A DNA stretch of 64,000 nt from Tolypothrix carrinoi HA7290-LM1 (lineage in GTDB: Bacteria; Cyanobacteriota; Cyanobacteriia; Cyanobacteriales; Nostocaceae). The stretch is from contig JAHHIK010000007.1 of assembly GCA_019358935.1 (NCBI GenBank), positions 1 to 64,000 of the forward strand, read 5' to 3'. Positions within the stretch are counted from its first letter, which is position 1; the number at the start of each line of letters is the position of its first letter. The notes beneath the pieces were generated by a model. That model saw only the letters and a program-made list of their open reading frames with translations. It was not told the origin of the DNA and ran no database searches. Positions 11,017-53,400 of this stretch are shown piece by piece. The translations under genes and the position numbers were made by a program.

Positions 11017-11331
11017 AAAGATGACTGTTAACTTCTACTGTCAACTGATCTAGCCGCTCAAGATTCACGTCTTCTTCAAAATGCCCACTCATGGTCGGTC
11101 AGTTTGCAGGCAAAGGGGACGGATTAAGATGTCTGCAAACAATAGACTTCTAGAATGCATAGGAGTCGAGTGTTCAAAAACGCGCAGCCCTGGTTGAACG
11201 TAGCAGGGGTTAAGAGCCGTTGTAAATGTTTAGCTCTCTATCACAGCACTGGGTTTTTGGTGTGCTGCGCCGAGCTGAGTACTTTTTCGTTCCATTTTCT
11301 AATAGTTCTTGTTTTCTGTAGGAGATTTATC

Positions 11332-12153: not shown

Positions 12154-12606
12154 GCTAAATACGCATCGGCATCTTTAAACATTTGGAACGTCTCTGTAAA
12201 CTACTCCATGCTAACTTTACTATAGCAAGGGTTCAACCCTAACTTAGTGCTCAAAAAATTGCAAAAGAAAGTCGAGTTTTCAGGCAGGTTCACAAAGACA
12301 GCAAGGCATTAAAGTGGCAAGATACTCTGATTGCCTTTTACCTCCCATAGTACTTCATCCCGATTTATTGAAAAAGCTGTAGATCCTGCCTAGCTTTCTT
12401 CCCTACCAAAACAAGGTTTGGAGCGGTTATTCAGTTGGGGAAAACAGAATTTCGAGACAGTCAGTGTTATAAGCGCATTTTGCTCTTGGTAACCAGCAAT
12501 CTGCCGTGAGTCAACCGAAGTGTTCGAGTAAGCCTATGGCAGCAAATCCCGCTATAGGATCTTGACGCAAGGGAGCATACAACACCTACAACAGGAGAGG
12601 AAAGTA

Positions 12607-12906
12607 ATGACTGCTTATATGATCGGTATGATGAAAGTCACCGACAAAGGCGCTTACGAAGAGTATAAAAAGTACACACCAGTGGCGGTTGCTAAGTACG
12701 ATGGCAAATTTCTCTCACGCGGCGGCACCAAAGTTACGCTGGAAGGTGAAGAAGAGTCCCGCCGGGTCGTGATTGTTGAATTCCCATCACTTGAGAAGGC
12801 TCAAGCGTTCTACAACTCATCAGATTACCAGCATGCGATTACCTACCGCAAAAACGCGGCAATAATGCAGTTGGTAGTGGTTGAAGGGTTTGAACAACTC
12901 GGATAA
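12607..12906 (+). CDS. DUF1330 family protein
   Basis: YDGKFLSRGG...LEGE...VVIVEFPSLEKAQAFYNSSDYQ. Confidence 0.88.
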   Translation: MTAYMIGMMKVTDKGAYEEYKKYTPVAVAKYDGKFLSRGGTKVTLEGEEESRRVVIVEFPSLEKAQAFYNSSDYQHAITYRKNAAIMQLVVVEGFEQLG

Positions 12907-13294
12907 CGCTGGCTTAGATCCCAAACATCGTCATTGACAATCGCCTCGTCGCTGAATTTTCCTTGGCAACGAGGCCATCCAGCAGTATATCAGCAAGTGG
13001 GACGATGCAATAGTTTGACGGGCATTGTACAAGGTCGCCAGCGTGCTTGTAACCTGTGCCAAGCAATGGTCGGAGTTGAAGGCTTGGCAATATGATTCCC
13101 AAAGCAGAGTGATCTCCAGCGTGTCCTTTGCGCAACTCACCTGCAAGCTTGCCTGGATCGTGCACCGCATGTGGCTCAAGGCTTCTGTTGCAAAAACTGT
13201 TTGAGCACAAAAGTCCCGCTTGTGTGGAATCTATCTATGTCGTTTTAGAAAGTTCATCAACCAATCTAGAATATTTACCAGAGAGAAGTAGCAA

Positions 13295-14428
13295 ATGGAA
13301 ATTGGTGTCCCTAAGGAAACCAAGGATCAGGAGTTTCGCGTTGGGCTAAGTCCGAGTAGCGTCCGGGTGTTGGGCGAGAATGGTCATACAATCTTTGTTG
13401 AAACAGGAGCCGGTGCTGGTGCTGGATTTACAGATGACGACTATCGACAAGCAGGGGCGCAAATTGTTTCCCAACCGGAATATGCCTGGAATCGCGATCT
13501 GGTTGTCAAAGTTAAAGAGCCGCTGCTGCCGGAGTACAGGTTTCTGCAAAAAGAGCAGCTATTGTTTACCTACCTACATTTGGCAGCTGACCGGAAGTTA
13601 ACCGAGCATTTAATTGATTGTGGTGTAACGGCGATTGCCTACGAAACTGTAGAACAACCAAGCAGCAACAAACTACCTTTGCTGACACCCATGAGCAACA
13701 TTGCTGGTCGTTTAGCAGTGCAATTTGGGGCAAGGTTCCTAGAACGTCAGCAAGGTGGTAAAGGAATTCTTTTGGGCGGTGTTCATGGGGTTAGACCAGG
13801 CAAAGTGGTGATTTTAGGCGGCGGTGTCGTTGGCACAGAAGCCGCGAAAATTGCTGTAGGTATGGGTGCCTCTGTCCAGATTTTAGATGTTAATGTTGAG
13901 CGTTTATCTTACTTAGAAACTTTATTTGGCTCTAGAGTCGAACTCGTGTACAGTAACTCCGCCCACATCGAAGCCGCAGTCAATGAAGCCGACTTGCTCA
14001 TTGGTGCAGTTTTAATTCCCGGACGTAGGGCACCGATTTTAGTCAAGCGTGACTTAGTTAAACAAATGCGTCCTGGTTCTGTAATTATCGATGTTGCCGT
14101 GGATCAAGGCGGTTGCGTAGAAACTTTACATCCTACATCCCACACTCATCCAATCTACATTGAAGAGGGTGTGGTACATTATGGCGTTCCTAATATGCCA
14201 GGGGCTGTGCCTCGTACCGCAACGCAGGCGCTCAACAACAGTACCCTTCCTTACGTGCTGAAGTTGGCAAATTTTGGGATGAAGGCACTGGAAATTGAGT
14301 CTGCCTTAGTCAAAGGCGTAAATGTTCAAAATCATCACCTGGTTCATCCTGCGATACAGCAAGTGTTTCCCGACCTGGCTGTCAAAAGTATTGCCCATAA
14401 AACATTGCGGATTTTTGGAGAGGTCTGA
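13295..14428 (+). CDS. ald: Alanine dehydrogenase
   Basis: MEIGVPKETKDQEFRV, FTYLHLA, GGGVVG, DVAVDQGGC, VPNMPGAVP. Confidence 0.96.
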   Translation: MEIGVPKETKDQEFRVGLSPSSVRVLGENGHTIFVETGAGAGAGFTDDDYRQAGAQIVSQPEYAWNRDLVVKVKEPLLPEYRFLQKEQLLFTYLHLAADRKLTEHLIDCGVTAIAYETVEQPSSNKLPLLTPMSNIAGRLAVQFGARFLERQQGGKGILLGGVHGVRPGKVVILGGGVVGTEAAKIAVGMGASVQILDVNVERLSYLETLFGSRVELVYSNSAHIEAAVNEADLLIGAVLIPGRRAPILVKRDLVKQMRPGSVIIDVAVDQGGCVETLHPTSHTHPIYIEEGVVHYGVPNMPGAVPRTATQALNNSTLPYVLKLANFGMKALEIESALVKGVNVQNHHLVHPAIQQVFPDLAVKSIAHKTLRIFGEV

Positions 14429-15609
14429 TGCAGTTTGCAAAGCGTTTAGAACCCCTGCAAGCCAATGTGTTTGCTGACATGGATCGGGCCAAGGCGAGGG
14501 CTTTGGCAGATGGGCGAGACTTAATTGACCTGTCGCTGGGTTCTTCTGACCTGCCAGCTGAGGCGCATGTCATCGAGGCGATCACTCACTCTCTAAATGA
14601 TAAGAGTACCCACGGCTACTTGCTGTTTCACGGCACTCAAGCGTTTCGCCAAGCGGCAGCTAACTGGTACAAGCAAAAATTTGGCATCCCGGTTGACCCA
14701 GAAACCGAGGTACTGCCCCTGATTGGTTCTCAGGAAGGCACAGCCCATTTACCTCTAGCAGTGCTGAATCCAGGAGATTTTGCCCTCTTGCTCGATCCGA
14801 GCTATCCGTCCCATACTGGGGGAGTCTACTTAGCCAGTGGTCAGATTTATCCGATGCCACTACGAGCAGAGAACGGATTTTTGCCGATTTTTGAGGAGAT
14901 TCCAGCGCCAGTCTTAGCCCAGTCTCGGATGATGGTGTTAAGCTATCCGCACAATCCTACTACTGCAATCGCACCGTTGTCTTTCTTCCAACAAGCTGTT
15001 GCGTTTTGCCAACAACACAATCTGGTGTTGGTTCACGATTTCCCTTACCCTGACCTGATATTTGCGGATTCAGCTGCCCCCTCAATTCTGGAAGCTGACC
15101 CGGATAAAAGTGTCTCCATTGAGTTCTTCACTCTCTCCAAATCATACAACATGGGAGGCTTTCGCATCGGCTATGCCATTGGAAATGCCCAGTTGATTCG
15201 GGCCTTACGGCAGGTAAAAATAGCTGTTGATTTCAACCAGTACCGGGGCATTTTGAATGGTGCAATTGCGGCCCTCACTGGTCCTCAAGACGGAGTCAAG
15301 TCCGCCGTCGCCACCTTCCGCCAGCGCCGAGATACTTTTATTAAAGCTCTTCATCGCGAAGGCTTGCAGGTTCCCACCCCGGCTGCCACGATGTATGCCT
15401 GGGCACAGCTGCCAGAACCTTGGGCTAATAATTCTGTAAAATTTTGCACCCAGCTAGTTGAAACAACTGGCGTGGCGGCTTCACCAGGTGCTGGGTTCGG
15501 TAAGTTTGGGGAAGGGTACGTCAGGTTTGCCTTGGTACACGAACCAGCTGTGCTTGAAACTGCGGTTGCCAGAATTGCTGCGTTTTTAAATGGCTCCTAT
15601 GTAGGGTAA
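14428..15609 (+). CDS. Class I/II PLP aminotransferase (LL-diaminopimelate aminotransferase-like)
   Basis: GSQEG, YPHNPT, HDFPY, TLSKSYNMGGFRIG (PLP lysine); TGATG coupling to ald. Confidence 0.9.
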   Translation: MQFAKRLEPLQANVFADMDRAKARALADGRDLIDLSLGSSDLPAEAHVIEAITHSLNDKSTHGYLLFHGTQAFRQAAANWYKQKFGIPVDPETEVLPLIGSQEGTAHLPLAVLNPGDFALLLDPSYPSHTGGVYLASGQIYPMPLRAENGFLPIFEEIPAPVLAQSRMMVLSYPHNPTTAIAPLSFFQQAVAFCQQHNLVLVHDFPYPDLIFADSAAPSILEADPDKSVSIEFFTLSKSYNMGGFRIGYAIGNAQLIRALRQVKIAVDFNQYRGILNGAIAALTGPQDGVKSAVATFRQRRDTFIKALHREGLQVPTPAATMYAWAQLPEPWANNSVKFCTQLVETTGVAASPGAGFGKFGEGYVRFALVHEPAVLETAVARIAAFLNGSYVG

Positions 15610-15693
15610 GGTTCACGGCTAATACCAGAAAACTACTACTTTTCAGACACTCTCCATTAATTCTGAATGTCACATTAGTTTAGCAGTAAGCCT

Positions 15694-16998
15694 ATGAATT
15701 TCGATCTGCCTGACCACCCACAATTGCAGTTTTCTAATATTTATGCTGCTGCCCCTGTTCTTCCCAATCAAGACTATCTCATCGTCTTAGATACAACACT
15801 GCGCGATGGAGAGCAATCACCCGGAGCCACACTGAACAGCGAAGCAAAGCTGGTGATTGCCAAGCAGTTGGCTAGGCTGGGTGTGGATGTGATTGAGGGT
15901 GGCTTTCCCTTTGCCAGTTCCAGTGAGTTTAAAGCCGTTCAGGAAATCGCCCACTGTCTGGGCGTAGAGGATGGTCCTGTCATCTGTAGTCTGGCAAGAG
16001 CAATTCGGCAGGATATTCAAGCAGCAGCAGAAGCGCTCAAACCTGCTGCCCATGCCAGGATACACACATTTATTTCCACCTCAGACATCCATCTGGAGTA
16101 TCAGATCAAAAAGTCGCGAGCGGAGGTTCTGGCGCTGGCGGAAGAAATGGTTGCTTACGCCAAATCTTTTACAGAGGATGTTGAATTTTCACCAATGGAT
16201 GCAAGTCGCTCTGACCCTGAGTTTTTGTATCAGGTTTTAGAGCGAGTGATTGCAGCTGGTGCAACGACTGTCAACATTCCAGACACTGTGGGCTACACCA
16301 CTCCCGAGGAATTTGGGATGCTGATCCGAGGCATTCGAGAAAATGTGCCCAACATTGAGCAGGCAATTATTTCTGTACACTGCCACAACGACTTGGGTTT
16401 GGCTGTTGCCAACACACTAGCAGCAATTCAGAACGGTGCACGGCAGGTAGAGTGCACAATCAACGGCATCGGCGAACGGGCTGGAAATGCCGCACTTGAA
16501 GAGATTGTGATGGCATTGCAGGTTCGTAAGCAGTATTTCAATCCTTATTTTGGTCGTCCTGTCGATTCCAAAGCGCCTCTGACCAAGATTAATACTCAAG
16601 AAATTTATCGCACTTCTCAGCTTGTTTCCAGCTTAACAGGAATTTTGGTTCAGCCTAACAAAGCAATCGTGGGAGCCAATGCTTTTGCCCATGAATCTGG
16701 CATTCACCAAGATGGAGTACTCAAGAACCGACTTACCTACGAGATTATGGATGCCCAGTCCATTGGTCTTTCAAAAAACCAGATCATCCTAGGCAAGCAC
16801 TCTGGACGGAATGCCTTCCGCACGCGCCTTAAGGAACTGAACCTTGTTTTACCAGAACAGAACTTTAACAAAACCTTTTTGCGGTTTAAGGAACTAGCGG
16901 ACAAAAAGAAAGAGATATCCGACTGGGATCTGAAGACGATTGTCAATTATGAGAACCGTACTTACCTTGAAGCAGGGTACTTAGATGCACATAAATAA
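15694..16998 (+). CDS. leuA: 2-isopropylmalate synthase homologue lacking the C-terminal regulatory domain
   Basis: [33 protein letters not shown]; ends shortly after [11 protein letters not shown]. Confidence 0.88.
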
Positions 16999-18406
16999 GC
17001 AAAAGCAAATTGAGCGTCAGGTAAAAATGCTGGCGCTTACCGCCATCTGCATTGGTTTCTTCATGGTGTTGCTTGACAACTCAGTTGTGAACGTGGCTCT
17101 GAAGAGAATTCAGGAGAACCTTGATGCCGATGTGTCAGGACTTCAATGGGTAATTGACGGCTACGCACTCGTCTTCGCCTGCCTTCAGCTCACCGCAGGC
17201 ACACTAGGCGACCGACTCGGAAGCAAACGAGTTTTCCTTGCAGGTCTCTTGGTGTTCACGGTAGCATCGGTGCTTTGCGGTCTCGCTGTCTCACTCTGGG
17301 ATCTGCTGGCGGCTCGGGCTTTGCAGGGAGTTGGTGCCGCTCTGCTTGTTCCAGCATCCCTCTCGCTCATCAGCCACATATTTCTGGAGTCTGAGGAGCG
17401 AGCCAAAGCGATGGGTGCCTGGTCAACTGCCGGGGGGATCGCACTCGCCGCAGGTCCGGTTTTAGGTGGTCTCCTTATCGACACCCTTGGCTGGAGGAGC
17501 ATATTTTTTATCAACCTACCTGTGGGCGTAGTTGCATACATCTTCACAGTCCGCTTCGTCTCCGCGTCACCCTGTTCCAAGCACCGTGAGTTCGACCTTG
17601 CTGGCCAAGTGACATGGGTTGCTGCCCTCTGCTCTCTCACTTTTGTGCTCATCGAAGGTAGTGCCCAAGGCTGGGGTTCTGTACTTATTATCGAAGTTCT
17701 GGGCATTTTTGCAGTGGCAGCAGCAGCCTTCATTGTTCTCGAACGTCGAGCTAAAAGCCCGATGCTCCCACTTGGGCTGTTCGCCATACCAACATTCTCG
17801 GCAGCAACCTTGGCGGCGCTCTTACAGAACTTTGCTTACTATGGAGTAATCTTCCTCCTCAGCCTCTTCTTGCAACAGGTGAGGGGTTACTCACCTCTAG
17901 TGACGGGGTTGGCTTTTCTGCCGATGACTGGCACCGTTGCGTTCGCAAGCACTCTCGCCGGACACCTCACTGGGCGCTTTGGTCCACGCTTACCTATGGT
18001 CGCTGGTTTGGCGCTTTGTAGCGTTGGCTTCATTACCTTGACCACTATTAACGCCACGACAAGCTACGTCGTCATCTTCATTATCCTGCTTCCAATTGGC
18101 TTTGGCGCTGGCCTTATTGTGCCACCCTTGGCTACTGCTCTCATCGGGGCTGCGCCGAAGGAGCGGTCAGGGGTTGCTTCGGGAATACTCAACACCAGTC
18201 GGCAAGTCGGCGGGTTGCTCGGAGTGGCGCTTCTCGGATCGCTGGTAAAAATGCACCACTCCTTCGTGGACGGTATGCACTTGGCTTTTATAACGGCGGG
18301 CGGTGCTCAACTGGTCAGTTGTGTCATCACGCTGCGCTACCTTCAAAGTGGAAAAACGCTAACAGAGGTCATTAGATCTTTTGCAAAAGCTAGACACAGA
18401 AACTGA
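16985..18406 (+). CDS. DHA2 (EmrB/QacA-like) MFS efflux transporter
   Basis: [31 protein letters not shown]; many hydrophobic segments. Confidence 0.92.
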
Positions 18407-25724: not shown

Positions 25725-26195
25725 TCAACCGTCGCCAAAAATACTGTCCAAATCCTGTGACGAAGCTTTGCCTTGAACCATTGAAGTTGGTCGCTGAGGC
25801 TGTTCAACTTCATGGTTAGTATCGGACTCTGGAGTTGTCTTACTGTCGTTATAGGCAATTGTCTTGGCATTCACCGTCACGCTCTCTAGGGGTGTAACCT
25901 GTGGTAGCACAAACTGCGGTTGCTCCACAGACATAGCCAAACGCATATTACTACCATGCTTGTTCAAAGAATCCTGCGCCTCCCAACAAGCGAAACGCAA
26001 TTGCTCGCTCGTATAATTGCCACTTACAAACCGTGCATACGGCAACAAAGCCGCCACCAAAATATCAGCCACCTTCCGGTTCACTTCTTCCTTGGGCAGA
26101 GAATTCAAATAATCAGCCACCTCCGCCATTGGGTCCCCCGAATAAGGTTGGAGACGCAACGATAGCGAAACACGCTTTCTCCTAACTCTAGTCAT
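25725..26195 (-). CDS. ParR-like adaptor downstream of ParM
   Basis: Translationally coupled to the ParM-like gene; basic N-terminus and low-complexity tail. Confidence 0.6.
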   Translation of the reverse strand: MTRVRRKRVSLSLRLQPYSGDPMAEVADYLNSLPKEEVNRKVADILVAALLPYARFVSGNYTSEQLRFACWEAQDSLNKHGSNMRLAMSVEQPQFVLPQVTPLESVTVNAKTIAYNDSKTTPESDTNHEVEQPQRPTSMVQGKASSQDLDSIFGDG

Positions 26196-27464
26196 TAGGA
26201 CCCCTCCAGTGAAAGCAAATAATCAAATAATCCAAAGCAGTCCACAAGACGAGCCGATATGCATTGTTCCCCAGACTGCTCGTCTGACAGAGCGAAAGAA
26301 AGTTTAACTTGCTCAGTAATGCCACTACCCCAAATCATCGGTGTGTGATGTCTGCTGTAATCTTTGGTTCTGTATTCATCGGTTCTCTCCTTTGCGCGGT
26401 TCCCCCATCTGTAATGTTCATTTATATAAGGTTTGCAATTAAAATAATTCTCCAGCTCCGGCTCAACGTGGTAAGCTGCACCCCCACCAATAATCACCTC
26501 ATCCAACTCAGTTGGTAAAACCCGATTCATCCAGCGCTGCAATTTATCCCAATACGACTCCGTGGCAGTTTTAATAGCATTACCAATATCTTGAATTTCA
26601 GATGCTCTAAGATTGGGGTCTTTGGCACTAGCTAAAGTTTTAATAGATGGGGACGCAACCCAGTTAGGGTAACGGGTGTATTTATAGTCCGCACTGTATA
26701 TTTCATTTTTGAGAGCGTAACGTGCGGAAAATATAGCTCCTGCCAAACGCTCTCGGTCTAGCCCACTCGTCATTTCAATAACCATATCCAGCATAGTGGA
26801 AAACCCCAACAGCGGACTATCTCCCGACTTTAACTGTCCCCGGTCGAAGTAAAGCGCAGTTGTATTGCGATGACCAAACATCAGCACACCCAACTGTTGG
26901 GAACGCAACCAATCAATACCTTGCTGCTTAATCCGAATAGCTGCTAATCCCCCACCTTCGCTCCCGGCATAAAAAGCGTTCCAGGCTCACCTTCAATGCC
27001 ATTTTACGTACCTGAAAGCCAGCCAACATTTTCTGCAACTGTTCGGAGAACTTTTTCCGATCTGAGTACTCATTCCAAGGGAGAAGTAGTGCCAATTCTA
27101 CCTTAAGAGTCTTTTTGGACGACACCTTGATTTTCGACATTTCTACAATCAGCCCAATTGCCCCCAATACTTTCCACAAAGCATTTTCATATTTCAGTTC
27201 GCCCAATCGGTCTTGTGGGTCAAAAGAAGATGCGAAATCTCCCAGGACAACCACACGAGAATTCCACTCCACCCATAATTGTTGGTCGGGATGGGGGCTG
27301 CCAATCCACCCCAGACGTGCCATATAATTATCGAGTTTAGTCTTGCTAATTTCCTCCAATATTGGTGGCATCAATAAATAATTGGGTTTTTGAGAGCCTG
27401 CTAGCTGATAAATAATCTTGGTTTGCGAGCCTCCCACGTCCACGCTGAGATAAATATCAGTCAT
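26195..27464 (-). pseudogene. parM: ParM/StbA actin-like ATPase split by a frameshift near 26960
   Basis: SVDVGGSQTK phosphate-1, disrupted C-R-x-EGGG, MFGHRNT, IIGGGAA. Confidence 0.8.
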
Positions 27465-27639
27465 GCAAAAAGTATTCTAAACACTACGGCACTATCTTGG
27501 CTCAACAATGCCTCAAATCGCCTCCAAAAATCCACGGAGAATGCACCATATAGTATTTCAATTGCCCTATCAGTTAGAGATAACGGTCAAGACAAATTGT
27601 GCTGACATTGCACTCATACTGTGCCACGTTCGCACTCAT

Positions 27640-27790
27640 AAGCTACCCCCAAGCCGATTTCGGGTAGGTGGACTAAAATAGTCGTACTCACTACGGTTAT
27701 TTGCCCTGCGGGTTGCCTGTGGCAATGCCTCGCTGTCGCTCGTCACAAATAACCTGCGTTCGCCCCATAGGGGGAAGAATCACGGGTGCA
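27640..27790. promoter_or_regulatory. Candidate oriT region upstream of the relaxase
   Basis: Nested inverted repeats (GGTTATTTG...CAAATAACC, TTGCC...GGCAA) directly upstream of the mob gene. Confidence 0.4.
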
Positions 27791-27887
27791 ACAATAACTT
27801 TTTTTCGGCATCCCATCCCAATTAATTCATCTTCCCATTAATCAGTAACGCCAGAACCAGAAAAACCACGATGATTCAACGCCTTTT

Positions 27888-29646
27888 ATGACATACGGTT
27901 ACGCGATCGCCCGCACTAAAAAACTCAAACGCAGCAATCTTGCTGGCAGTGAGGCACATACTGCCCGAACACGCGAAACCCCCAACGCGGATTCAGAGAT
28001 TCAAAACATCAGGCTTATTGGCAGCGATGACCCAAATGAAAAACTTGAAGATTTGGTGCTGACGAAAATTGGGCAATATGAACAAAAGCGCAAAATTCGC
28101 ACCGATGCTGTTTACTGTGTCGAGATTCTTCTGACGGCATCTCCCCAGTACTATCGTCCAGACGACCCAACCCGCGCCGGGTACTATCACTCAGACAAAC
28201 TTAAACAATGGGTTGATGCAAATCTCACATGGTTGGACGAGACGAGAGAGCGATCGCATTGTCCGCGCCGAACTGCACCTTGATGAGGCGACACCCCACT
28301 TACATGCATACTTCGTTCCACTCGACTCCAAGGGACAACTCCGGTGCAATCACTTTTTCGACGGTCGTCAGAAAATGCAAGCTTTTCAGGATTCCTACCA
28401 CACCGCGATGCAAGACCTGGGGTTAGAAAGAGGCATCAAGGGGAGTAAGGCGCAACACCAGGATATTAAGGACTTTTACAGGATTGTCGAAGAGGGAAAA
28501 GACCTCTCTTCAGGGAAACTCTCCCCCCAACAACTCCAAGCCAAGGCTGCCGATCGTGACCGGGCAGTTAAACGTAAGTCCGAATTGGAACTGACTGCCA
28601 AATATCTGGTTAAAGAAAACGAAAAACTTCAAGCACTTAAACAGCAACTAGAAGCCGAAAATCAACAGTTGCGTTCTGAGCTATCCCAACAAGCGGAACA
28701 ACTGCGCGACCTCCCGCTCGACTCGGTGGCTTGGCAGTTGGGATTGACCAAAACCAAGGGGGATGATAAGTATCATGGAGAAAACCACATCATTAATATA
28801 GATAGAACTCAGTGGTATGACTTTCATCCGTCTCAGGACAAAGGTGGTGGCGGGGCAATTGACCTGGTGATGCACGTCAACCAGTGCGATTTCAAGGAAG
28901 CGCGAGCGTGGCTTCAAGACCGATTTGGAGAATCAGATATGCTGCGAGCAGTCACCCACCACGCTCGTACACAAGCGCTCAAAGTTGTTAAGTCATCTCC
29001 TTCCCCCCAGTTTGTGCCACCAGCAGAGGACGAATCGAACTGGCAAGCGGTACACAACTACCTCACCCAAAAACGGGGACTGCCTGAAAACTTGGTAGTT
29101 GGTCTTAAAGAGCGGGGATTAATTTATGCTGACTCCAACCAAAATGCCGTGTTTTTAATGCGGTCACTAGATGGTGAGACTGTAGGCGCATTTCTACGGG
29201 GGACAAGAGGAGAAAACAACACCTTCATGGGTTATGCCCCAGGAACCAAACGTACCGATGGGTGGTTTTATGTAGGTAGGGGAGGACAACCAGATGATGA
29301 AATCCACACATGTGTGCTGTGCAAATCCCCCATCGATGCTTTATCAAAAGCAGTGTTGTCACTCTCAGATAACAAGGGAATGCCCCAGGAAAAGACAATG
29401 TACCTAGCAGCAGATAGTGCCAAGAGCTTGCCCCTAGAATTCCTCAAGCGCTTACCCAAGGTGATAGCTGCTTTTGGCAACGATGATGCTGGCAACAGTA
29501 TGGCACAAACCATTAAGGAACTGTTGCCATCCTCCTTCTTTGTGCGACCACAAACACTCGATTGGAATGAACAACTGCGCTATAACCACACATTTCCGGA
29601 AAAACAGCGGCAGTCCAAATCATTGCATCGGGGATTAGAACTCTAG
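27888..29646 (+). pseudogene. MobV (Mob/Pre) relaxase fused to DUF3991/TOPRIM-like region, frameshift near 28245
   Basis: HTARTRETPNAD, VEILLTASP, AELHLDEATPHLHAY, GGGAIDLVMH, KSPIDALS, DWNEQL. Confidence 0.85.
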
Positions 29647-31185: not shown

Positions 31186-31488
31186 CAATGGGTAAAAATG
31201 GGGAAGAATTAGGTGACAGTTACGAACCCCCATCCCCACTAGCCCCTGCGGTGCCTGCATTGGTGGATATTTGACTGTTGCGGCGACACCCACCCTAACA
31301 AATCCTCTAGTTTGGATCTACCTGGGTAGTTGTAGCGATGTGCCTATTTATGATCGCATTTAAATTTTTGTAACGCGATCATATTATGCTGGTGGCTAAA
31401 ATTGTAAAATATTATCTTTAAATAGATGAAAAGTTATATGTAATAACTGATTGTCGGTTTTCACACAATTAAAATAGGAAAAACTTTA

Positions 31489-31698
31489 ATGCTAAATAAA
31501 TGTATTTTTGGTGTTTTTTTTGTTGTAATAACTGCGATGACAACTATTGCTGTTAATGCAAGCGATGGAAGTAACACAAAGAATAGCGTTGATGGTGTCC
31601 ACAAGATGCTTGAGAAGCATGAGCTTGTAGGAAAGTCTTGCTGCGCGGATGAGTTTGGAAACTGTATAAGTTGCTTTATTGATCGACGCAATTTCTAA
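31489..31698 (+). CDS. Secreted Cys-rich small peptide (core CCADEFGNCISC)
   Basis: AGGA RBS, signal-peptide-like N-terminus ending AVNA, paralogue at 33892-34047, terminator-like hairpin downstream. Confidence 0.7.
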   Translation: MLNKCIFGVFFVVITAMTTIAVNASDGSNTKNSVDGVHKMLEKHELVGKSCCADEFGNCISCFIDRRNF

Positions 31699-31744
31699 TT
31701 ACCGAAGCGTTTTGTATCAATCAATAGTATCGAAAAGTAATCAA

Positions 31745-31780
31745 AATAAAACCCACTTTTTAAACTAAGTGGGTTTTATT
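31745..31780. terminator. Likely bidirectional intrinsic terminator
   Basis: AATAAAACCCACTT-N8-AAGTGGGTTTTATT. Confidence 0.7.
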
Positions 31781-31956
31781 TATATCAATAATTTAACAAT
31801 CGCTATATTCTTCGGCAGATTCGTACTTCAGCAATGAGTCGCTCAAAACTTCGTTAACAGTGCGTTGCAACTCGATAATAATCAATAAGAAATCTGTAAC
31901 TAGTTGATTGTTTTTCCCGTCGCGATGTTCGCACCATTTTTGATAAGCGCGATTCC

Positions 31957-33333
31957 TTAGAGCATCAGCGTCAAGTTTCCGGCATTTGCGGAACCTAGAG
32001 TCCTAGCCAACAAGCTGCTGGGAAAACCTGTGGCTGAGGTTCCAATTAGCTCTATGGACTCGGAGGCATTCACGGTCAAATTCCCTCCATTTCCTGTAGC
32101 TGGTGTAAATTGTGAATTCCGTATAAATCCACTAGAATCTGTTGATACCTCTGCCCCATCTTGAATACGCAGTCTACCAGTGTTGATCGTTATGTCACCT
32201 GCCTTACCGGCAGCGCTGGTAAAACTAGACAATGCACTGGGCTGGGTTTGAGAAGTCTTTGGATCTATAAAGCTACCAATTAAGTCTACAGACCTGGAGG
32301 CGTTCACTGTCAATCTTCCTCCCGCACCGAATCCAATAGTATTAGATAAAACTTGTGCGCCATCCCGAACAATTAATTTCTCACTAGTAATCGTTAAGTC
32401 TCCACCATCTCCGACACCCCTAGCCTGACTTCTCAAGCGCGTATTATAACCAATTAGTTCGACATCTCTACCTTGTACCTGGATATTACCTGAGCTGCCA
32501 TCTCTGTTATTGGCATCTACTTGTGATGGAATCTGAGAACTGTCAACAGCTCGCAGTCTTAATTGAATGTTTTGGAAATTCTGAACCCCAGAATAGCCCA
32601 AAACCCAGCCTTGGTTTATTGGGTTAAGACTGACCAAACTATCAAGAGCGACACTTCCTATCTCAATTCGTCCCGACGGTGCTGTTAAATTTCCGCCCTC
32701 AAATATCACATCACCGCCTACAAGTGCTAAGGTTTTGCCTGTTGGCACCTGTAGACCAACGGGGAATCCAAAACTATTGATTGCCCCACCTGGACTAGCT
32801 TGAGATTGGTTGCGGATGGGTGCCGCAGTTGCTCCGAATTGTAAGCCAATAGGAACACTTACTGTCAGCAGGGGTGCGGTTATTGTATCTGTAGCACTAA
32901 ACTTAGTACCATCGGCAAAATTCAAACTAGCGGCTGTACTTGCTACAAATGAACCACCGATGTTGAGGGAAGCATTGGAACCAAAAATAATCCCGTTGGG
33001 ATTAATCAAAAACACGTTGGCTGTGCCGTTGGCTCGGAGTATGCCATCAATATTAGAAGTAGACTGACCCGTTACCCGGCTAATAATGTTCTGAATATCG
33101 AAGGCATTGTTAAAGTAAGCCGCACTTCCAGTAGGTACGGAAAACATCTCAAAACTGTGGAAAAGATTGCCCCCAAATCGGGTTCCACCTTCAATAATTC
33201 TTATGTTGTCTTGTGTTGTAATGCGAGAATTGTTAGGTAGAGTAACATCTGGGACAATTTGGGCAATAGCACAGCTTTCCCAGAAAGCTATTGCACCAAC
33301 TATTACAATTCCTAGCCCTTTAAACCTGCCCAA
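31957..33333 (-). pseudogene. Filamentous haemagglutinin (TpsA-like) N-terminal domain protein, apparently C-terminally truncated
   Basis: Signal peptide, NLFHSF, NIISRVTG, NPNGIIFG TPS motif, beta-helix repeats ending abruptly mid-repeat. Confidence 0.8.
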
Positions 33334-33650
33334 AAGAATGCTGATAGTGCAACCCCTCCATGCTCTCTTCTCTGTTGCTGAATAACAGTAACTCTGTACC
33401 TATATTACTCCCTTCCCGGTGTTCAATTGAGGAACCACATTAGCTGTGTCATATTGGTCTCAAATCAACTGAAAATGATTCGACATCTCCAGAAAAGACG
33501 TAGAGACGTAGCACTTGGTAGTCTCTTGGGTTCGGGCAACGCATAATTAATTTCTACGCCTATGTCTATTGCCTACCATACAGTAGGCACGCGCTTGCCC
33601 TCTTATGCTTACTGTAATTAAGTTTTAGCAGTCGCCCTAAATTCTGTCTA

Positions 33651-33680
33651 TTCCTGTGATAAAGATTTTTATCACAGGAA
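33651..33680. promoter_or_regulatory. 13-bp perfect inverted repeat, candidate operator
   Basis: TTCCTGTGATAAA-GATT-TTTATCACAGGAA. Confidence 0.5.
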
Positions 33681-33891
33681 AAATACGCTCAAAGCCTGAA
33701 TTCGGGCGTGAGAATGAAGCATTGAATCCGGTTGAAATTTTATCCTGATCACTTTCCATCAGTCAGAGCGCGTACATTTTGGTGACAATGCTCAAAGCAC
33801 GCGAATTATAGCTACCGTTGCGCCTTTATTCTTTCTTTTAAACTAGATTGGTAGTAAATTAGTCAATACGTCTGGTTTAATCGAGAGGTAT

Positions 33892-34047
33892 TCAGCAACT
33901 TATACAGTTTCCAAACTCATCCGCGCAGCAAGGCTTTCCTAGAAGCTCTTGCTTTTCAGGCACCTTGCCGAAGTTAGACTTCTTCTGGCTCTCACTTGTT
34001 TGCTGCTTAATCTCGTCTTTTGACTGCTGTATTTTTTGAGAATCCAT
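33892..34047 (-). CDS. 51-aa Cys-rich peptide missing from the ORF track
   Basis: My translation: MDSQKIQQSKDEIKQQTSESQKKSNFGKVPEKQELLGKPCCADEFGNCISC*; AGGAG RBS upstream; C-terminus shared with 31489-31698. Confidence 0.72.
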   Translation of the reverse strand: MDSQKIQQSKDEIKQQTSESQKKSNFGKVPEKQELLGKPCCADEFGNCISC

Positions 34048-34572
34048 GACTTTTTTTCTCCTAGCAATATAGTAGATTTATGGAAATGCATAGTACCAAT
34101 GATGGTGCATGGTACTGTCTGTTAACCGAGCGGAGCTTTGAGTAGCAGTCGAACTAACAATTGAGTGAAGTAAGTTCAACTTTTTCCTTCTGCATTCTTA
34201 ATAGGTTTAATTGAAATAAACTTATGCATTTAGAAAAAATGCCTTACATTGGCACGAGCGATCGCTCGATCGCTGGTGATGGTGCGACTGGGGGACACTC
34301 GTCGCAAGCTATGAGGCGCTCACTCTCCGTTACAAGTGCCTTACTTGCCGTTTCTCAAGCATATCCCCACCCACAGCACTGCCCGTCGCCAAAATCTACA
34401 CCAATTGCTTGCAAGGCATACTTGTACTTATCAAAAATACAAATGCTTGACTTCAAGTTCTTCACTGGGAGCAACTTGAATTGAGCGACAAAATTCTTCA
34501 GAAGAAAGCATTTAGCACAAAACTATTCGTTCTTCCTTAACAACTTAAATTATGATGTAGGCGCAATAAAAG

Positions 34573-46754: not shown

Positions 46755-47933
46755 CTAGAAAATATCTGCCGGATCTGCGGAGCGGAGTTTGTTCATAGCC
46801 AGCAACCCAGAAGTCATACACATTAAAATTGTTGATATTAAGATAATTAATATATTATTCCAGTTCATCATAATTGGTAATTTAGTGGCTTTCATGGTGA
46901 AATCATATATGCCTAAAGAAATAGCAAATCCAGGTATATAACCCAAAATTGCCAATATAAAACCCTGTTGAAATACCACATTTAATAAATAATTATCTTC
47001 ATAGCCTATAGCTTTTAAAGTAGCATAAGCAGTCATTTGAGTGGAGATATTACTATAAAGAATTTGATAGACAATGACCACACCAATTACAAAACCCATT
47101 GTGAGCATGAGGTTAAATATAAAACCAATGGGCGTTCTGGTCGCCCAATATTTTTTTTCAAAATTTTGAAATTCTTGCTTTGTAAAGATTAGGACATCAT
47201 TAACTAAATTGGTTCGCAGATTTTCTAAAATTTTTTGCGGTTCGACACCAGGAGCGAGAGTTATTGCACCCACATCTATCATTTCTGAAGTCCGGTTGTT
47301 TAGAAATATCCTGAGGAAAGTTGAGTCACTGACAATTAAATTACCATCTACTCCAAAAGAAGGACCTAAACTGAATAAACCACCAACTCTCATTCTATAA
47401 CCAGTGACTGAATTAAAGGGAAATATTTCAACTATTTGCTCAGTACTTTCCGACTCAAATCTCTCAGCGACTGGTCCAAACTCCGGTCGAGAATTTCGGT
47501 CAAACAGTACCACATCAGAAATTTTAATTTTTTCTAAATTCCCCTCAATTTCTGGTAAATTTATACCTACCTTTCCCGGTTCAATACCAATAACATATAT
47601 TGAGTATTTCTCACCGTTTACAGGATTTTTAAATTTGGCAAATCCCAAATACATAGGACTGATTGACTCTACACCATAAAATCCCAAGGCTTGATATAAA
47701 CGAGTCCGAGAAAAGCTTTGATTTGCAGTCAAAGATTTATATTGAGAACTGACTAAAAATAGATCTCCTCGGAGACTCTGATGCACCTGAGTAGCACTTG
47801 AATAGAGAGCATTTTGGATGCCAAGTTGTACAAACATTAGAATCACAATAAAACCAATGCCAGCCACAGCCATTAAAAAACGAACTTTGTCTCGGACTAG
47901 TTGTAGCCAAGCTAAGGGAATTCTAAAAACCAT
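46755..47933 (-). CDS. devC: DevC-type ABC exporter permease
   Basis: IPLAWLQL, FVQLG, SFGVDGN, IVYQILY, YATLKAIGY, ADPADIF. Confidence 0.92.
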   Translation of the reverse strand: MVFRIPLAWLQLVRDKVRFLMAVAGIGFIVILMFVQLGIQNALYSSATQVHQSLRGDLFLVSSQYKSLTANQSFSRTRLYQALGFYGVESISPMYLGFAKFKNPVNGEKYSIYVIGIEPGKVGINLPEIEGNLEKIKISDVVLFDRNSRPEFGPVAERFESESTEQIVEIFPFNSVTGYRMRVGGLFSLGPSFGVDGNLIVSDSTFLRIFLNNRTSEMIDVGAITLAPGVEPQKILENLRTNLVNDVLIFTKQEFQNFEKKYWATRTPIGFIFNLMLTMGFVIGVVIVYQILYSNISTQMTAYATLKAIGYEDNYLLNVVFQQGFILAILGYIPGFAISLGIYDFTMKATKLPIMMNWNNILIILISTILMCMTSGLLAMNKLRSADPADIF

Positions 47934-47975
47934 GATTTCAGTCTGTGATTCTTTTAACAGTGTCTTCAATGGCAA

Positions 47976-49172
47976 TTATATTTGAATGGCAACATCCACC
48001 TGTAAGTTGGTTAAACCTGCGACCCGTTGACTATCCTCTAGATTATCGATGCGAATTTTCACCTCAATGACTCTGCGGTCTGTGTCTACTCCGGGATTAA
48101 GACTTAAAATACTCTGTTTACTAACTTGCAAACCAATCTCACTCACTGTTCCCCACAATTTTTTAGTAAACGCAGTACTAGTAATGGTGGCTTTTTGACC
48201 TAGACGCACTTTCTCTATATCAGTTTGATAAACTTCTGCAACCACATACATTTGAGATGTTTTGCCTATCTCAACAATCCCTGAATTACCAATCACTTCT
48301 CCTGTTTTGGTATGAACTTTCAAAATTTTTCCATTTATAGGAGATGTGACATAGGTTAAATCTCGTTCTGCTTTTGCTTGTGTGACTGCAGTTATGGTAC
48401 TATTAAGTTCCGCTTGTGCGACTTGGACATCTACATTACGCACCTCGCTAATGCTTGCTAGTCTGGCTTGTGCCTCCTTTATCTGGTCGCCAAGCGTGTT
48501 CACAGTCTTGTTTAGGTTTGCCTTGGCTTCTGTGAGTTGCTGTTGCACCGTCAGAAGTTGTAAACGCTTGCTATCTGCAATAGAAGCTGAAATGGCACCT
48601 TGAGAATATAACTGCTGATACCGATTGTTCTCGGTTTGAGCATTGTCTAACTCAGCTTGCAAGCGGGCGATTGTTGCTTGTTGAGTGGTCACTTCTCCTT
48701 TTAATTGAGTTTCTAAACGGGCGAGTGTTGCTTTTTGAGCCGAAATGTCTCCAGATTTTGCTCCGGCTTTGACCTGAGCTAGTCGAGCTTGAGCAACTCT
48801 AACTTTGTCTTGTGCCTGTTGCAGTGCCGCTGTCGCTCTGGCATAATCTTGGAGTAACGCCACTATTTGCCCTGCCCGAACTGTGTCTCCTTCTTTGATC
48901 AACAGTTTTTCTACTCGGTTCCCAGAGAGTGAACTGGGGGCAGATAATTGAGTCACTTCGCCTTGAGGCTCTAGGCGTCCCAAGGCAGTAATAGCAACTC
49001 TGACAGGAGCTGCTTTATGGGATTTTAATGGGTGAGTCTGAATATTAGACCGATATTGTGAAAAAATGTAGACAGATGAGACTCCTATGGCTAATGCGAT
49101 AAAAGCTGCCGATATTATTCGCCATCGACCTGAAGATTTTTCAAGTAATCGGCTTTCTTTGTCCGCTGCCAT
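47976..49172 (-). CDS. devB: DevB-type membrane fusion protein
   Basis: ALGRLEPQGEV, MYVVAEVYQTDI, DRRVIEVKIR, LTNLQVDV. Confidence 0.92.
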   Translation of the reverse strand: MAADKESRLLEKSSGRWRIISAAFIALAIGVSSVYIFSQYRSNIQTHPLKSHKAAPVRVAITALGRLEPQGEVTQLSAPSSLSGNRVEKLLIKEGDTVRAGQIVALLQDYARATAALQQAQDKVRVAQARLAQVKAGAKSGDISAQKATLARLETQLKGEVTTQQATIARLQAELDNAQTENNRYQQLYSQGAISASIADSKRLQLLTVQQQLTEAKANLNKTVNTLGDQIKEAQARLASISEVRNVDVQVAQAELNSTITAVTQAKAERDLTYVTSPINGKILKVHTKTGEVIGNSGIVEIGKTSQMYVVAEVYQTDIEKVRLGQKATITSTAFTKKLWGTVSEIGLQVSKQSILSLNPGVDTDRRVIEVKIRIDNLEDSQRVAGLTNLQVDVAIQI

Positions 49173-49273
49173 ATTTTCATCCCAATCTTACTACGCTAAT
49201 GTGGCTGCAACCGGGCTTATAAATGTCTCTATAAGCATTAATTCTCAAAATACCACCAACTAGTCCCGTTGCC

Positions 49274-49307
49274 AGATCCCCGACAACTTTGGCGAAGTCG
49301 GGGATCT
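49274..49307. repeat. REP-like palindrome
   Basis: AGATCCCCGAC-N12-GTCGGGGATCT. Confidence 0.7.
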
Positions 49308-49328
49308 AACCACTGAAGCACTAGGAGC

Positions 49329-50396
49329 CTAAAAACTTACGAGAATTCGCCGCTGCTGACCTCGAAACGGCTTGCGTCCATGTCCAAATCGAAAATTATC
49401 AAGAAACAAAACATCTCCTTGCTGCCAGTTGAAGACAATAGTTTCAGCGATGACAGCATCCCATATTGCTTCAATATCTTTGCGTGTAAAAGGAGTACCA
49501 TTGCCAAGGGTACAATTCCAATAAATATTACCGGGAGCATACCACTTTTGGAAAAATAAAAGTACTGGAAGCATCTTGCTCCCTAATTTTAGTAGTAATG
49601 GGCTAGAAGCTGTCGCTATAAACCTAAGGATTGGAGATGCTTTCATTTTATCTGAATTGACAGATGCTACTAAATCACCAAGAAATTCCTGTGGTGTAAT
49701 CCGCAGTGAGTGTTCCTGTCTTGAGGAGTGATAGCTAGTAATTTGATTAACCCAAAGTTCTTCCCCTGTGTGTGGATGGCGACGAATACCTTCTACGGTG
49801 TTAGTAATCACCATGATTTCGCCGTTACTTTCCCAAGTACAGTTAAAACCCATTGCCTTGCACCTTTCTTCGGCAATACGGGTATTTTCAGTTTTGAAAG
49901 ATTGACTCCAACCTTTTAAGTAACTTCCACTTTCTTTCGGTAAGCGTCGGATATAGCGAACGCCGTGAGTACGTATGGCATCCACAAGTTGATTTGGTAG
50001 CCGTTGCAAAACACGCCGACAGTCGCAGATTGGTGTCTGTCCCCCTACCTCTGCTGTTTCTAAACAGAAAAAAAGTATTCGCTCGGGAGGCTTATCAGAA
50101 TACCCCATTTCATTGTGAATAGGAAAGGTGACTGCTGGAGGGAATTCACTTGAATTGTATACTAAGCCTTTCACTGGCTGGCGAACTATAGTGCCACCCA
50201 TGTAATCCGTTGGGGTAGTGATAAACTGTGCTGCGACATCTGCAAAATCTTCAGCAGTTTTTAACGGAAAACCCCGCAGTAAAACGGCTCCATGCTCTGC
50301 AAATATTGAGTTGATTTGACTGACAGCATCTTTGTTTAAGAAATGCTCGCCAATCTCCTCAAAATTTAGTTGAAATGGAATAGTGATGGTTTTCAT
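49329..50396 (-). CDS. TauD/TfdA (SyrP-like) Fe(II)/2-oxoglutarate dioxygenase
   Basis: GAVLLRGF, IHNEMGY (H-x-E), GGQTPICD, WQQGDVLFLDN...HGR. Confidence 0.88.
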   Translation of the reverse strand: MKTITIPFQLNFEEIGEHFLNKDAVSQINSIFAEHGAVLLRGFPLKTAEDFADVAAQFITTPTDYMGGTIVRQPVKGLVYNSSEFPPAVTFPIHNEMGYSDKPPERILFFCLETAEVGGQTPICDCRRVLQRLPNQLVDAIRTHGVRYIRRLPKESGSYLKGWSQSFKTENTRIAEERCKAMGFNCTWESNGEIMVITNTVEGIRRHPHTGEELWVNQITSYHSSRQEHSLRITPQEFLGDLVASVNSDKMKASPILRFIATASSPLLLKLGSKMLPVLLFFQKWYAPGNIYWNCTLGNGTPFTRKDIEAIWDAVIAETIVFNWQQGDVLFLDNFRFGHGRKPFRGQQRRILVSF

Positions 50397-50456
50397 GTAT
50401 ATATATTTCTCGTTTTTGCAACACAACCGCTAATTTTAAAAACAGTCTTTCAGAAA

Positions 50457-53400
50457 CTACTTGACAAGTGAACTCATAAGTGGTGTGAGTTCTTCAGAAA
50501 TTGCTTGCAAAAGCAGCTGTTGATCGCTGTGCAGGAATAGATGATTGCCGCTGAACATTTGCAGCTTAAACGTGCTGCGAGTTTGTTCGCGCCAAGCCGA
50601 AAGGAGATCTTCGGTTATCACCTTGTCTTGCGTCCCTCCAAACACAGAAATGGGACAATCCAGTGGCTCTTCCTCTGTGTAGCTGTATCTCTCAGTCAAC
50701 AAAGTTACTTCCTTTAAAATCTGTGGTAACAATTCCACAAGTTCAGTCTTTTCCCAATACAATTGGAGTAAATCGTTGACAGATACTCCTTTGATCAACT
50801 CGAATTCAGAGAACTGCTCAACAGAAGGATGTAAATAGGGTAGCTGAGGAGCTTGTGAAGCACCAATGAACAAGTGAGCCGGAATTTTACCATTTTCGCG
50901 GCGCAACTGACGGGCGAGTTCAAAGCTGACCAATGCCCCCAAACTGTGACCATAGAAAACGAATGGTTTGTCCAGATAAGGAAGCACAACTTGTGCCAAG
51001 GTTTCCACAATAGAGGTTAGCTCGTCGAATGACTGTTCGCCCAAAAAGTCTTTATTTCCGGGAAGCTTAACGGCACAAACTTCTACATCTGATGGTAAGT
51101 CATCTGACCAAGGAAGAAATACTGAGGAACTGCCCCCAAGGTACGGGAAGCAGAACAGACGCAAGCAGGCATCCGGATTTGGTTTGGGGAAAACGAGCCA
51201 ATCGGTTGGAACTGCTGTCACTGAGGGAGGTAATTGTGTCTGGGAAGTTGTTGCGGTAGTCAAGGAAGTTTCCATCAGTTGCTCAACAAGCTCCACTGCT
51301 AGTTGGGAAATGCTTGGACCCTGCATGAGTTTCATTGTGGGTACACTCACACCCAAAACGCTCTCGATTCGGTTACTCAGTTCCACTCCCATTAAGGAGT
51401 CAAGTCCCAGATTGGTCAGCGGTTTTGATCTGTCTAGCTTGGCGGGAGAAGTTCCTAATACCCGTGCAACTTGTTTTTGCAGATGAGATTCCAAAATCTG
51501 CTGGCGCTCCGCCGGTTTTGCTACCAGAACGGTGTTGCGCAGCGAATCTCTTTCGCTATTGCGCCCGTCCGCCTTTCCTAGAACAGTTGCTTCGTTGACT
51601 AGGTGAGAAAATCGCGCTGATGCGCCAGCCGGGTAAATCTCGCCCCACCGCTGCCAGTTAACTGGCGCTACCCCTGTCTGGACTGCCTCAAGGAGGAGCA
51701 ATTGTCCCAGTATCTGTAGTGCTTCCTGCGACGGCAAAGCTTTCATTCCAATCTGCTCTAAATACTGACCTACGACGGTATTCTGAGCGACATAACCAAC
51801 ATCTGCGATCGCACCCCAGTTGACGGTCAGGGCTGGTAGTCCTTGGGCACGGCGGTGATGTGCCAGCGTATCAAGAAAAGTATTGGCAGCCACATAATTT
51901 CCCTGTCCTGCATTTCCAATAATGGAACTAAAGGAGGAAAATGACACGAAGAAATCTAAGGGTGCGTTCAAGGTGTGGGTATGTAAGTTCCAAGCTCCAA
52001 TTAGCTTGGGTGCGATCGCTTTCGCTAAGCGCTCTTGGTTGAGATCGAGCAAGGGAGCATCGTCCAGAACCATTGCCGCGTGAATAATGCCTCGCAACGG
52101 CGGCATAGACTGCTTAATGTCAGTCAGAACGCCCTTTACCTGCTCCTCCTGGGACACGTCTGCTTTAGCGACTACCACGCGAGCGCCTGCTGACTCTAAA
52201 ATTTTTACGGCTTCAGATGCTGCTGGAGAGGAAGCACCACTGCGACCCATCAGCACTAAGTGCCGCGCACCACCTTCCACCAACCACTGAGCTACTGCTA
52301 AACCAAAACCACCTAGTCCACCGGTAATTAGGTAGGTTCCGTCAGGGCGAAAAGTGACCGTTTCTTCAGATGAGGGAGCTACCGTTACATCTGGCTCTTG
52401 CAACGATACGACAATCTTGCCGATGTGCTTCGCTTGTGCCATGTAGCGGAAGGCGCTTATCACCCGAGATATTGGGAAGACCCGGTGAGGAAGCGGGTGA
52501 AAGGTTTTCGCCTCAAAATATTGCATGACTTCGCCCAATAAGGAGCCAGCTTTATCTGGGCGATCACTTAACAGCTTGTCCAAATCTACCGCAAAGAAGG
52601 ACAAATTATTTTGAAAAGGTCGCAGACCCAGTTTGTTGTTCTGCTCGATATCACGCTTGCCGATTTCTATAAAACGTCCATAGGCTCCTAGCACAGAGAG
52701 GGTCTTAGGGATAGCCTCTCCCGCCAAAGAGTTGAGGACGATATCTACACCTTTACCACCAGTGATTTCCATCACCTGGGAGGCAAACGCTAAAGACCGG
52801 GAATCCATGACATGCTGTACGCCAAGCGATCGCAAAAATTCCCGTTTTTCTGGACTACCTGCCGTCGCGAAAATCTCTGCACCCACCAAGCGGGCAATTT
52901 GGATGGCAGCAAGACCCACACCGCCAGCCGCCGCGTGGATGAGAACCCGCTCACCCTTACAGATCTGCCCCAAGTAGTGCAAGGCGTAGTAAGCAGTCAG
53001 AAAAGTCACAGGGATTGTGGCGGCTTCCTCAAAACTGAGATGCGCGGGCTTATGCACTACAGCGCGGGCATCTGTTGTTGTATGCGTACTAAAGCTGTGA
53101 GGGGCACAAGCAATAACCTCATCACCTATCTTAAACTCTTCAACACCAGAGCCAATAGCGGTAACGATTCCGGCACATTCTATACCAAGCGATCGCCCGG
53201 AGAAAGTCCCCTCTAAACTAGCATCACTTAGCAAATTTATTGCCTTAGCAACATCCTTAAAGTTCAAACCTGTGGCGCAGACTTGAATCTCAACCGAGCC
53301 GGAGGCGGGTTCTTGGCGCGCGTAAGACCGCAGTTCCAAGTTATCCAGCACTCCAGGTGTAGAGATTTCCAAACGAAAGGGTTCTTGATTTTGGACAAGG

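Follow-up and report, generated by a model that had tools for sequence, protein, structure and literature searches.

A family of cysteine-core leader peptides encoded ahead of TPS-domain β-helix genes in Nostocaceae, with a partly broken copy in Tolypothrix carrinoi

Two kinds of described system are among those closest to the locus reported here. Nif11-derived (N11P, TIGR03798/PF07862) and NHLP precursors are small cyanobacterial proteins that occur in paralogous sets and join a long conserved helical N-terminus to a hypervariable, cysteine-rich C-terminus (PMC2887384). TpsA proteins of two-partner secretion (TPS) systems, such as FHA, HMW1, EtpA and HxuA (PF05860), are TPS-domain β-helices; the literature searched describes no dedicated cysteine-core peptide encoded upstream of a TpsA gene. 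We analyzed a stretch of 64,000 nucleotides from Tolypothrix carrinoi HA7290-LM1 (the window), positions 1 to 64,000 of contig JAHHIK010000007.1, which is contig C7 of genome G000, a Nostocaceae genome. It contains two short open reading frames (ORFs), A and B, which encode a shared cysteine core on either side of a gene for a TPS-domain protein. ORF B is a member of an unannotated, widespread family of leader-core cysteine peptides, which are tied to TPS β-helices and have interchangeable N-termini.

ORF A (31489-31698, + strand) encodes 69 residues and ORF B (33892-34047, - strand) encodes 51, and both contain the motif K-x-x-EK-x-EL-x-GK-x-CCADEFGNCISC. An earlier note on this DNA, made from the letters alone, had proposed these two ORFs and their core, a 39-bp perfect inverted repeat (31637-31675/33894-33932), an AGGAG ribosome-binding site for ORF B and a signal-peptide-like N-terminus in ORF A but not ORF B, all of which we could reproduce. 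The AGGAG lies 10 nt before the ATG of ORF B, and ORF A has AGGA. Residues ~4-17 of ORF A are hydrophobic (11-residue Kyte-Doolittle value of 2.6), and ORF B is without such a stretch. ORF A comprises a predicted signal peptide (residues ~1-24, not of the FHA type), a short spacer, a remnant of the second helix of the family, the core CCADEFGNCISC and a 7-residue tail. ORF B is leaderless, in the sense of having no signal peptide, and ends in the core. The repeat arms (31602-31675, + strand, in ORF A; 33894-33967, - strand, in ORF B) match over 74 nt at 92%, including the 39 exact nt, and each codes for the helix-2 remnant and core. The N-termini, called unrelated in the note, are unrelated as far as the repeat but not within it; in both proteins the helix-2 remnant makes up the first half of the repeat. 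The match is unique in the 7.96-Mb genome (tblastn E of 7e-12, next best 0.3), and the 39-mer has a depth of 1356 in the probable source run against ~650 in its flanks, indicating a true two-copy repeat.

ORFs A and B matched no Pfam or NCBIfam family, and returned only themselves from a search of 5.8 billion proteins, from 1.84 billion representatives and from plasmids. ORF A gave no usable match in the ESM Atlas, and an exact-core DNA pattern occurred neither in the genomes nor in the metagenomes searched. A looser core pattern gave seven matches among 185,579 species genomes; the six non-cyanobacterial ones were taken as expected chance (one checked by tblastn), and the single cyanobacterial occurrence, in other codons, was followed (L051). 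The entry point to the family was a search of 389 Nostocaceae genomes with ORF A, in which its best outside match (E of 0.002) was the core of a signal-peptide protein at locus L046. The same search touched 84 genomes at E<=0.5, and among the 20 loci returned only L006/L046 and L011 held family members. Two weak order-level matches were interpreted as frames that arise by chance ahead of a different gene.

L046 has two TPS genes with small genes in front of each. Its leaderless proteins end CCEDWQGRCVTC and WCVPCPSNGNPLGCNC, and its signal-peptide protein ends CCEDEYGNCISCW. A profile built from these two leaderless sequences drew 56 proteins out of 96 candidates and placed the family in 205 of the 389 Nostocaceae genomes and 30 of 68 genera. 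The names among the profile matches listed are hypothetical or uncharacterized, apart from one Nif11 label (P0023). We found no description of the family in the literature searched; paywalled papers and supplements, such as those of a Nostoc exoproteome study (PMC11424642), may hold one. A further profile, A3, an alignment of 29 sequences, matched 12 of 35 Nostocaceae genomes and none of ten other genomes of the window's genus, three of which are <92% complete. Of 265 cyanobacterial genomes from outside the family, 2 were matched weakly (E of 7e-5 and 1e-3); both matches lie within long ORFs and were taken as noise.

Residues 1-38 of ORF B, with the core excluded, match the A3 hidden Markov model with an E of 1e-6, the top score among the 66,509 ORFs of G000, and a second profile comparison gave 1.4e-7. 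The DNA of ORF B also aligns with L087, where 279 nt that take in the gene and its promoter are 71% identical. Its leader is degenerate: conserved columns L19, L40 and G44 (P0003 numbering) read S, P and E, and three of the four near-invariant leader residues are gone. Leaders in L136 and L011 are worn in a similar way. ORF A alone was not significant against the leaderless family in a profile-profile comparison (E of 0.12), and we count it as a member because of its 92% DNA match to ORF B and its core. Relative to full-length members, both ORFs lack the strand region of ~45 internal residues. Near matches to the core CCADEFGNCISC are CCEDEYGNCISCW (L046), CCEDENGNCVSCW (P0005) and CCFDEFGRCVPC (L011).

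Full-length family proteins have ~90-110 residues. Their N-terminus is helical and conserved, and they end in a hypervariable cysteine core, which is their least conserved block. An AlphaFold model of the family (pLDDT of 76) consists of two helices and two strands followed by the core; fold searches with it reached a best Z of 3.4 and gave no Foldseek match. The leader-core arrangement proposed for the window belongs to real peptide genes and recurs throughout the family. A fixed CC-x6-C-x2-C framework, proposed alongside it, does not: at least four cysteines occur in the last 25 residues of 50 of 74 members, in many spacings, and the overall range is two to eight. In one member (L163:7814-8245) the leader domain is duplicated internally.

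A conserved helical leader followed by a hypervariable cysteine-rich core is the layout of precursors of peptides that are ribosomally synthesized and then modified post-translationally (RiPPs). Were the family of this kind, the leader would be read by a distant maturase and exporter, the modified core would be an antagonistic or allelopathic bacteriocin, and the β-helix would be its carrier or decoy. The UniRef label of P0023, "Nif11 domain-containing", would fit, as would the distance at which N11P substrates can lie from their LanM, as reported in PMC2887384. Yet 29 members gave no convincing match among the weak Pfam and NCBIfam families listed for them (the best 25 of 61 and the best 25 of 27), and neither Nif11 nor NHLP was among these. 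G[GA] occurs within six residues before a core cysteine in just 8 of 74 members, and in neither ORF A nor ORF B. Among 463 neighbor proteins, neither a maturase nor a peptidase transporter is recurrent, and the window encodes no maturase or peptidase ABC exporter, in keeping with the earlier observation that no maturase is adjacent. We also recognized no RiPP enzyme among the recurring neighbor clusters within 6 kb, most of which were identified by eye as housekeeping. Furthermore, Sec-type forms without the entire leader keep the same core, and these could not be processed by leader-dependent cytoplasmic enzymes. A classical RiPP precursor, with no maturase near, no Gly-Gly leader and no Nif11 or NHLP match, is not supported, and we regard a RiPP or bacteriocin role as unlikely.

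To define the gene context, we examined 61 loci of 5-20 kb, picked from the matches to span many genera. Of the 60 loci with a family gene, 54 have a co-oriented TPS gene that begins no more than 2.5 kb downstream of it, which makes the earlier link to an FHA/TpsA-like gene a strong one. Among the 463 neighbor proteins, TPS proteins are the only widely recurring ones (54 loci; the next cluster has 14). In G000, by comparison, only 1 of the 25 TPS ORFs has a family gene upstream. That ORF is the one in the window, where ORF B lies 559 nt before the TPS ORF on the same strand, the usual position in the family. The two ORFs had been described as converging on this gene; ORF A does run opposite to it, but ORF B is upstream of and co-oriented with it. 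Family genes without a downstream TPS gene are found in L090, L159, L137, L158, L099 and L103; L099 and L103 are truncated ahead of the core, and L137 adjoins a TPR-CHAT gene.

The window TPS protein is 70% identical to full-length relatives of 770-840 residues, and the partner proteins in general have ~800. In a quick-type tree, it clusters with the peptide-linked TPS proteins (SH-aLRT of 100; L045 was entered among these though no peptide gene is seen upstream of it, at an N gap), and 23 further TPS proteins of G000 fall elsewhere. L045 (L045:4100-4560) is from a congener and has a close full-length TPS orthologue, part of the upstream motif described below, and the N gap, which may hide a peptide gene. 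The partner has the features of TpsA proteins, namely a signal peptide, a TPS domain (PF05860) and a β-helix, the last modelled over residues ~30-640 (~600 residues) and similar by Foldseek to EtpA, HMW1 and the protein-binding HxuA. Its more variable blocks are residues 301-320, 361-380, 401-420 and 481-500, and a poorly ordered C-terminal tail contains an invariant and a second, near-invariant cysteine. A complex prediction for the L046 β-helix and P0003 scored 0.00, with the partner fold uncertain.

Two alternatives start from this partner. In the first, the core would be exported and act as a thiol chelator, and the β-helix would capture the metal-loaded peptide, as HxuA does the haem-hemopexin complex. 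Cysteine-rich C-termini with CxxC and CC motifs would suit a metal shuttle, and the HxuA-hemopexin structure was rank 2 among the Foldseek matches. That match, however, reflects the shared TPS fold at 11-16% identity, cysteine number (2-8) and spacing vary freely, and neither a metal transporter nor a TonB receptor recurs among the neighbors; we find such a shuttle quite improbable. In the second, the peptide would be an accessory of the TPS protein (a chaperone, plug, inhibitor or disulfide partner of its C-terminal cysteines) and the signal-peptide copies would be by-products of recombination. The tight one-to-one gene pairing and the two tail cysteines are consistent with this, as is the copied TPS 5' sequence with which many secreted copies start. 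A binding part should be conserved, yet the core is hypervariable, and arrays of as many as seven intact secreted copies whose cores diverge (L092), together with Tat-type forms (L152, L153), point to selection on export. An accessory role is, if anything, a shade more doubtful still.

Signal-peptide forms are present in 13 of the 61 loci, as called by patterns chosen from the sequences and with the Tat (twin-arginine) assignment made by eye. They are of three types: FHA-type Sec signals, copied from the start of the TPS gene itself, twin-arginine signals (L152, L153), and another type (L138). In some forms the signal peptide is followed by the complete leader, and others retain only the core. 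At L152:8790-9188 and L153:7786-8868, twin-arginine-type N-termini stand ahead of the whole leader. At L092:11418-16619, seven signal-peptide genes of ~160 residues with diverging cysteine cores form an array, and a single leaderless gene and a single TPS gene lie downstream of it. The pairing of a secreted and a leaderless protein around a shared core, first noted in the window, recurs in other genomes. In 17 hand-read pairs, including that of the window (but not the L136 pair or the additional copies of L092 and L101), the core score is 68 within loci and 28 between loci, and the partner from the same locus is the best core match in eight. Exact core runs of 26-41 nt occur in 5 of the 17 pairs; those in L069 and L076 (36 and 41 nt) are comparable to the 39 nt in the window.

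These runs bear on a further alternative, in which the repeat would be a DNA inversion site that flips the intervening 2.2-kb segment and thereby swaps the N-terminus and promoter before the TPS gene, the peptides being incidental. Contigs of runs X8 and X2 do join the N-terminus and core of ORF A to the DNA after ORF B, and tyrosine recombinase genes are present on contig C7. However, the similar exact runs in other loci are direct repeats, which argues that the inverted repeat in the window is a duplicated coding core. Homologues keep the cysteines and not the bases, the reverse of what had been named as grounds for a DNA site. Because contigs of the source run end at the 39-nt repeat, the joins can be assembly collapse, which may account for the A-first join in X2. 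X8 is without both other arms and its TPS frame is unbroken, so a different allele fits it better than a flip. We consider an inversion site very improbable.

The contigs of public runs from related strains, which are k-mer assemblies with one depth figure each, suggest how the two ORFs may be related. In X6, ORF B directly precedes the TPS gene, and in X8 ORF A does, with no coverage of the other N-terminus in either. ORFs A and B therefore seem to supply a single core, ahead of a single TPS gene, with either of two N-termini. The TPS frame of both X6 and X8 runs on past 31965, where it is broken in the window; X2 and X3 have the same break as the window.

We propose that ORFs A and B encode two precursor forms of an exported, disulfide-closed ligand, that this ligand is recognized by the cognate β-helix, and that both feed a TPS/TPR-CHAT/CHASE2 signalling module. 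This is our tentative preference, and as a whole it falls a little short of an even call. The core would act outside the cytoplasm, since three unrelated signal-peptide types have been recruited and the core is the sole part kept by all such forms, and it would close its disulfides there. The helical N-terminus may be an export or processing leader, the β-helix would be the receptor of the core, and core variation would give strain specificity. That ligand and receptor would feed a proteolytic signalling module is suggested by the TPR-CHAT, DUF928 and CHASE2 genes that a minority of the loci carry: 11 of 61 add TpsB (5), TPR-CHAT (10), DUF928 (3) or CHASE2 (3) genes. The genome G000 carries all four, each on other contigs; contig C7 has no TpsB gene, and six TpsB-like ORFs lie elsewhere. 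A signalling role for TPS-TpsB-TPR-CHAT-DUF928-CHASE2 clusters is suggested by their domain content. DdvA, a myxobacterial (Myxococcus) anti-sigma factor and not a cyanobacterial protein, is reported to be a periplasmic TPR-CHAT sensor (PMC11506125).

Several observations weigh against this proposal. Coding constraint is modest: pN/pS in seven close genes is 0.61 for the leader, 0.71 for the linker and 0.35 for the core, and ~0.7 between ORF B and its relative in L087. ORFs A and B differ by five amino-acid changes and one silent change, and the X8 form of ORF A, which keeps the frame and four cysteines, differs by four and two. Cores are unlike within the locus in 5 of the 17 pairs. TPS proteins 70% identical to that of the window bear different cores (L087), and closeness in the TPS tree reflects kinship and not co-evolution. 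Most loci have the leaderless form only, for which no exporter was found, 6 of 60 have no TPS gene, and 50 of 61 have no CHAT, TpsB or CHASE2 gene within 16-20 kb. The loci themselves are kin and a non-random sample.

The earlier note missed that the window locus is rearranged and decaying. The 5' part of the TPS gene (31967-33345, - strand; residues 1-460; PF05860 E of 2e-70, TIGR01901) is broken at 31967; its start codon, ATG in relatives, is replaced by ATC, and a TTG at 33333 opens a 458-residue ORF. A 60-bp remnant (31226-31285, - strand), identified by comparison with relatives, corresponds to residues ~534-553 and lies inside longer TPS sequence in runs X6 and X8, with one difference. 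Between the two, ~73 TPS codons are replaced by an AT-rich insert of 681 bp (31286-31966, + strand, 34.5% GC), of which the genome has no second copy; the remainder of the TPS gene was not found at the locus. The insert holds ORF A, running opposite to the TPS gene, with its upstream region and, 3' of it, a terminator-like hairpin with a perfect 15-bp stem (31744-31781, no strand). Conceivably, the insert arose as a circle excised from a tandem array of B and A. Dispersed-repeat DNA between ORF B and the TPS gene (33436-33802, no strand) is skipped in the contigs of X6 and X8. A TnpB gene lies on one side of the pair and a gene for the plasmid replication protein CyRepA1 on the other. Since the local β-helix is truncated and the ORF B leader degenerate, the A/B unit probably amounts to half-dead cargo of a plasmid in decay, from which ORF A would still be made and exported.

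Upstream of ORF B, by 184 nt, is a 44-nt motif of the type AAGTGCATAAGTTRATTT-N9-CTATTAAG (34188-34231, - strand), which is found at 16 of 65 family upstream regions, 12 of these being sites of other genomes on which the matrix was trained. The window site scores 40.2, second among 31 sites in G000 that score at least 18, and a 3-Mb shuffle has none. The 31 sites precede varied genes and look like a promoter or operator class; judged from the sequence, the motif is likely to be a promoter or operator. Outside the window, G000 has a 101-residue ORF (C83:32896-33201, - strand) with a signal-peptide-like start and a C-terminal cysteine core, 114 nt before another TPS gene. It has no A3 match, shares the upstream DNA motif with ORF B (84% over 49 nt), and possibly represents a second, analogous peptide family. 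Elsewhere in the window, an actin-like gene is split over two ORFs and a MobV relaxase over two frames (26195-29646), indicative of a decaying plasmid backbone. Positions 46755-58943 encode a 2828-residue type I polyketide synthase, a dioxygenase-like protein and a DevB/DevC exporter. One run of genes at 9958-18406 encodes a methyltransferase, alanine dehydrogenase, LL-diaminopimelate aminotransferase-like and isopropylmalate synthase-like proteins and a major facilitator superfamily (MFS) exporter, a possible small-molecule pathway.

The copy in the window is the less important part, a decayed example that led to the family. TPS-domain proteins are many in filamentous cyanobacteria (25 in G000), and the literature searched names no inputs for cyanobacterial CHAT/CHASE2 clusters. 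The family is a candidate input: its members are short and synthesizable, and are encoded beside a candidate receptor in half of Nostocaceae. The family also offers a variety of natural cysteine-peptide frameworks that Pfam and NCBIfam overlook. More speculatively, and in our view rather unlikely as stated, heterocyst-forming cyanobacteria may share a widespread peptide code for kin or partner recognition, in which hypervariable disulfide peptides, exported through helical, Sec or Tat leaders, would be read by TpsA β-helices that trigger TPR-CHAT and CHASE2 proteins. Specificity would be rewired by recombination, gene arrays and plasmid transfer, as may have occurred here.

Peptide pheromone-receptor pairs also encode a variable short ligand beside its presumed cognate partner, and the window core CC-x6-C-x2-C presumably resembles the CC-C-C frameworks of alpha-conotoxin-like peptides. 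The family differs from both in having no sequence relation to them, a secreted β-helix as presumed receptor and a framework that is not fixed. TPS loci of contact-dependent growth inhibition (CDI) and other polymorphic toxin systems, which contain orphan C-terminal cassettes, likewise combine a TpsA protein with nearby variable short cassettes and recombination at shared sequence. Here, the variable part is a core of 12-25 residues in separate upstream genes and not a C-terminal TpsA toxin, the TpsA protein has only ~800 residues and no immunity gene was seen. The full-length relative in L046 has PF05860 only, with no toxin domain, and no small gene recurs downstream at the family loci; a CDI system was rejected on the lack of a toxin domain and immunity gene. 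The partner is TPS-domain β-helical like the TpsA systems, from which most family loci differ in being without TpsB, adjacent in 5 of 61. Compared with the N11P and NHLP precursors, the family has no Gly-Gly site, profile match or adjacent LanM, cyclodehydratase or ABC exporter, and is distinguished by its linkage to a TPS β-helix and by a leader that is swapped for, or extended with, Sec or Tat signals.

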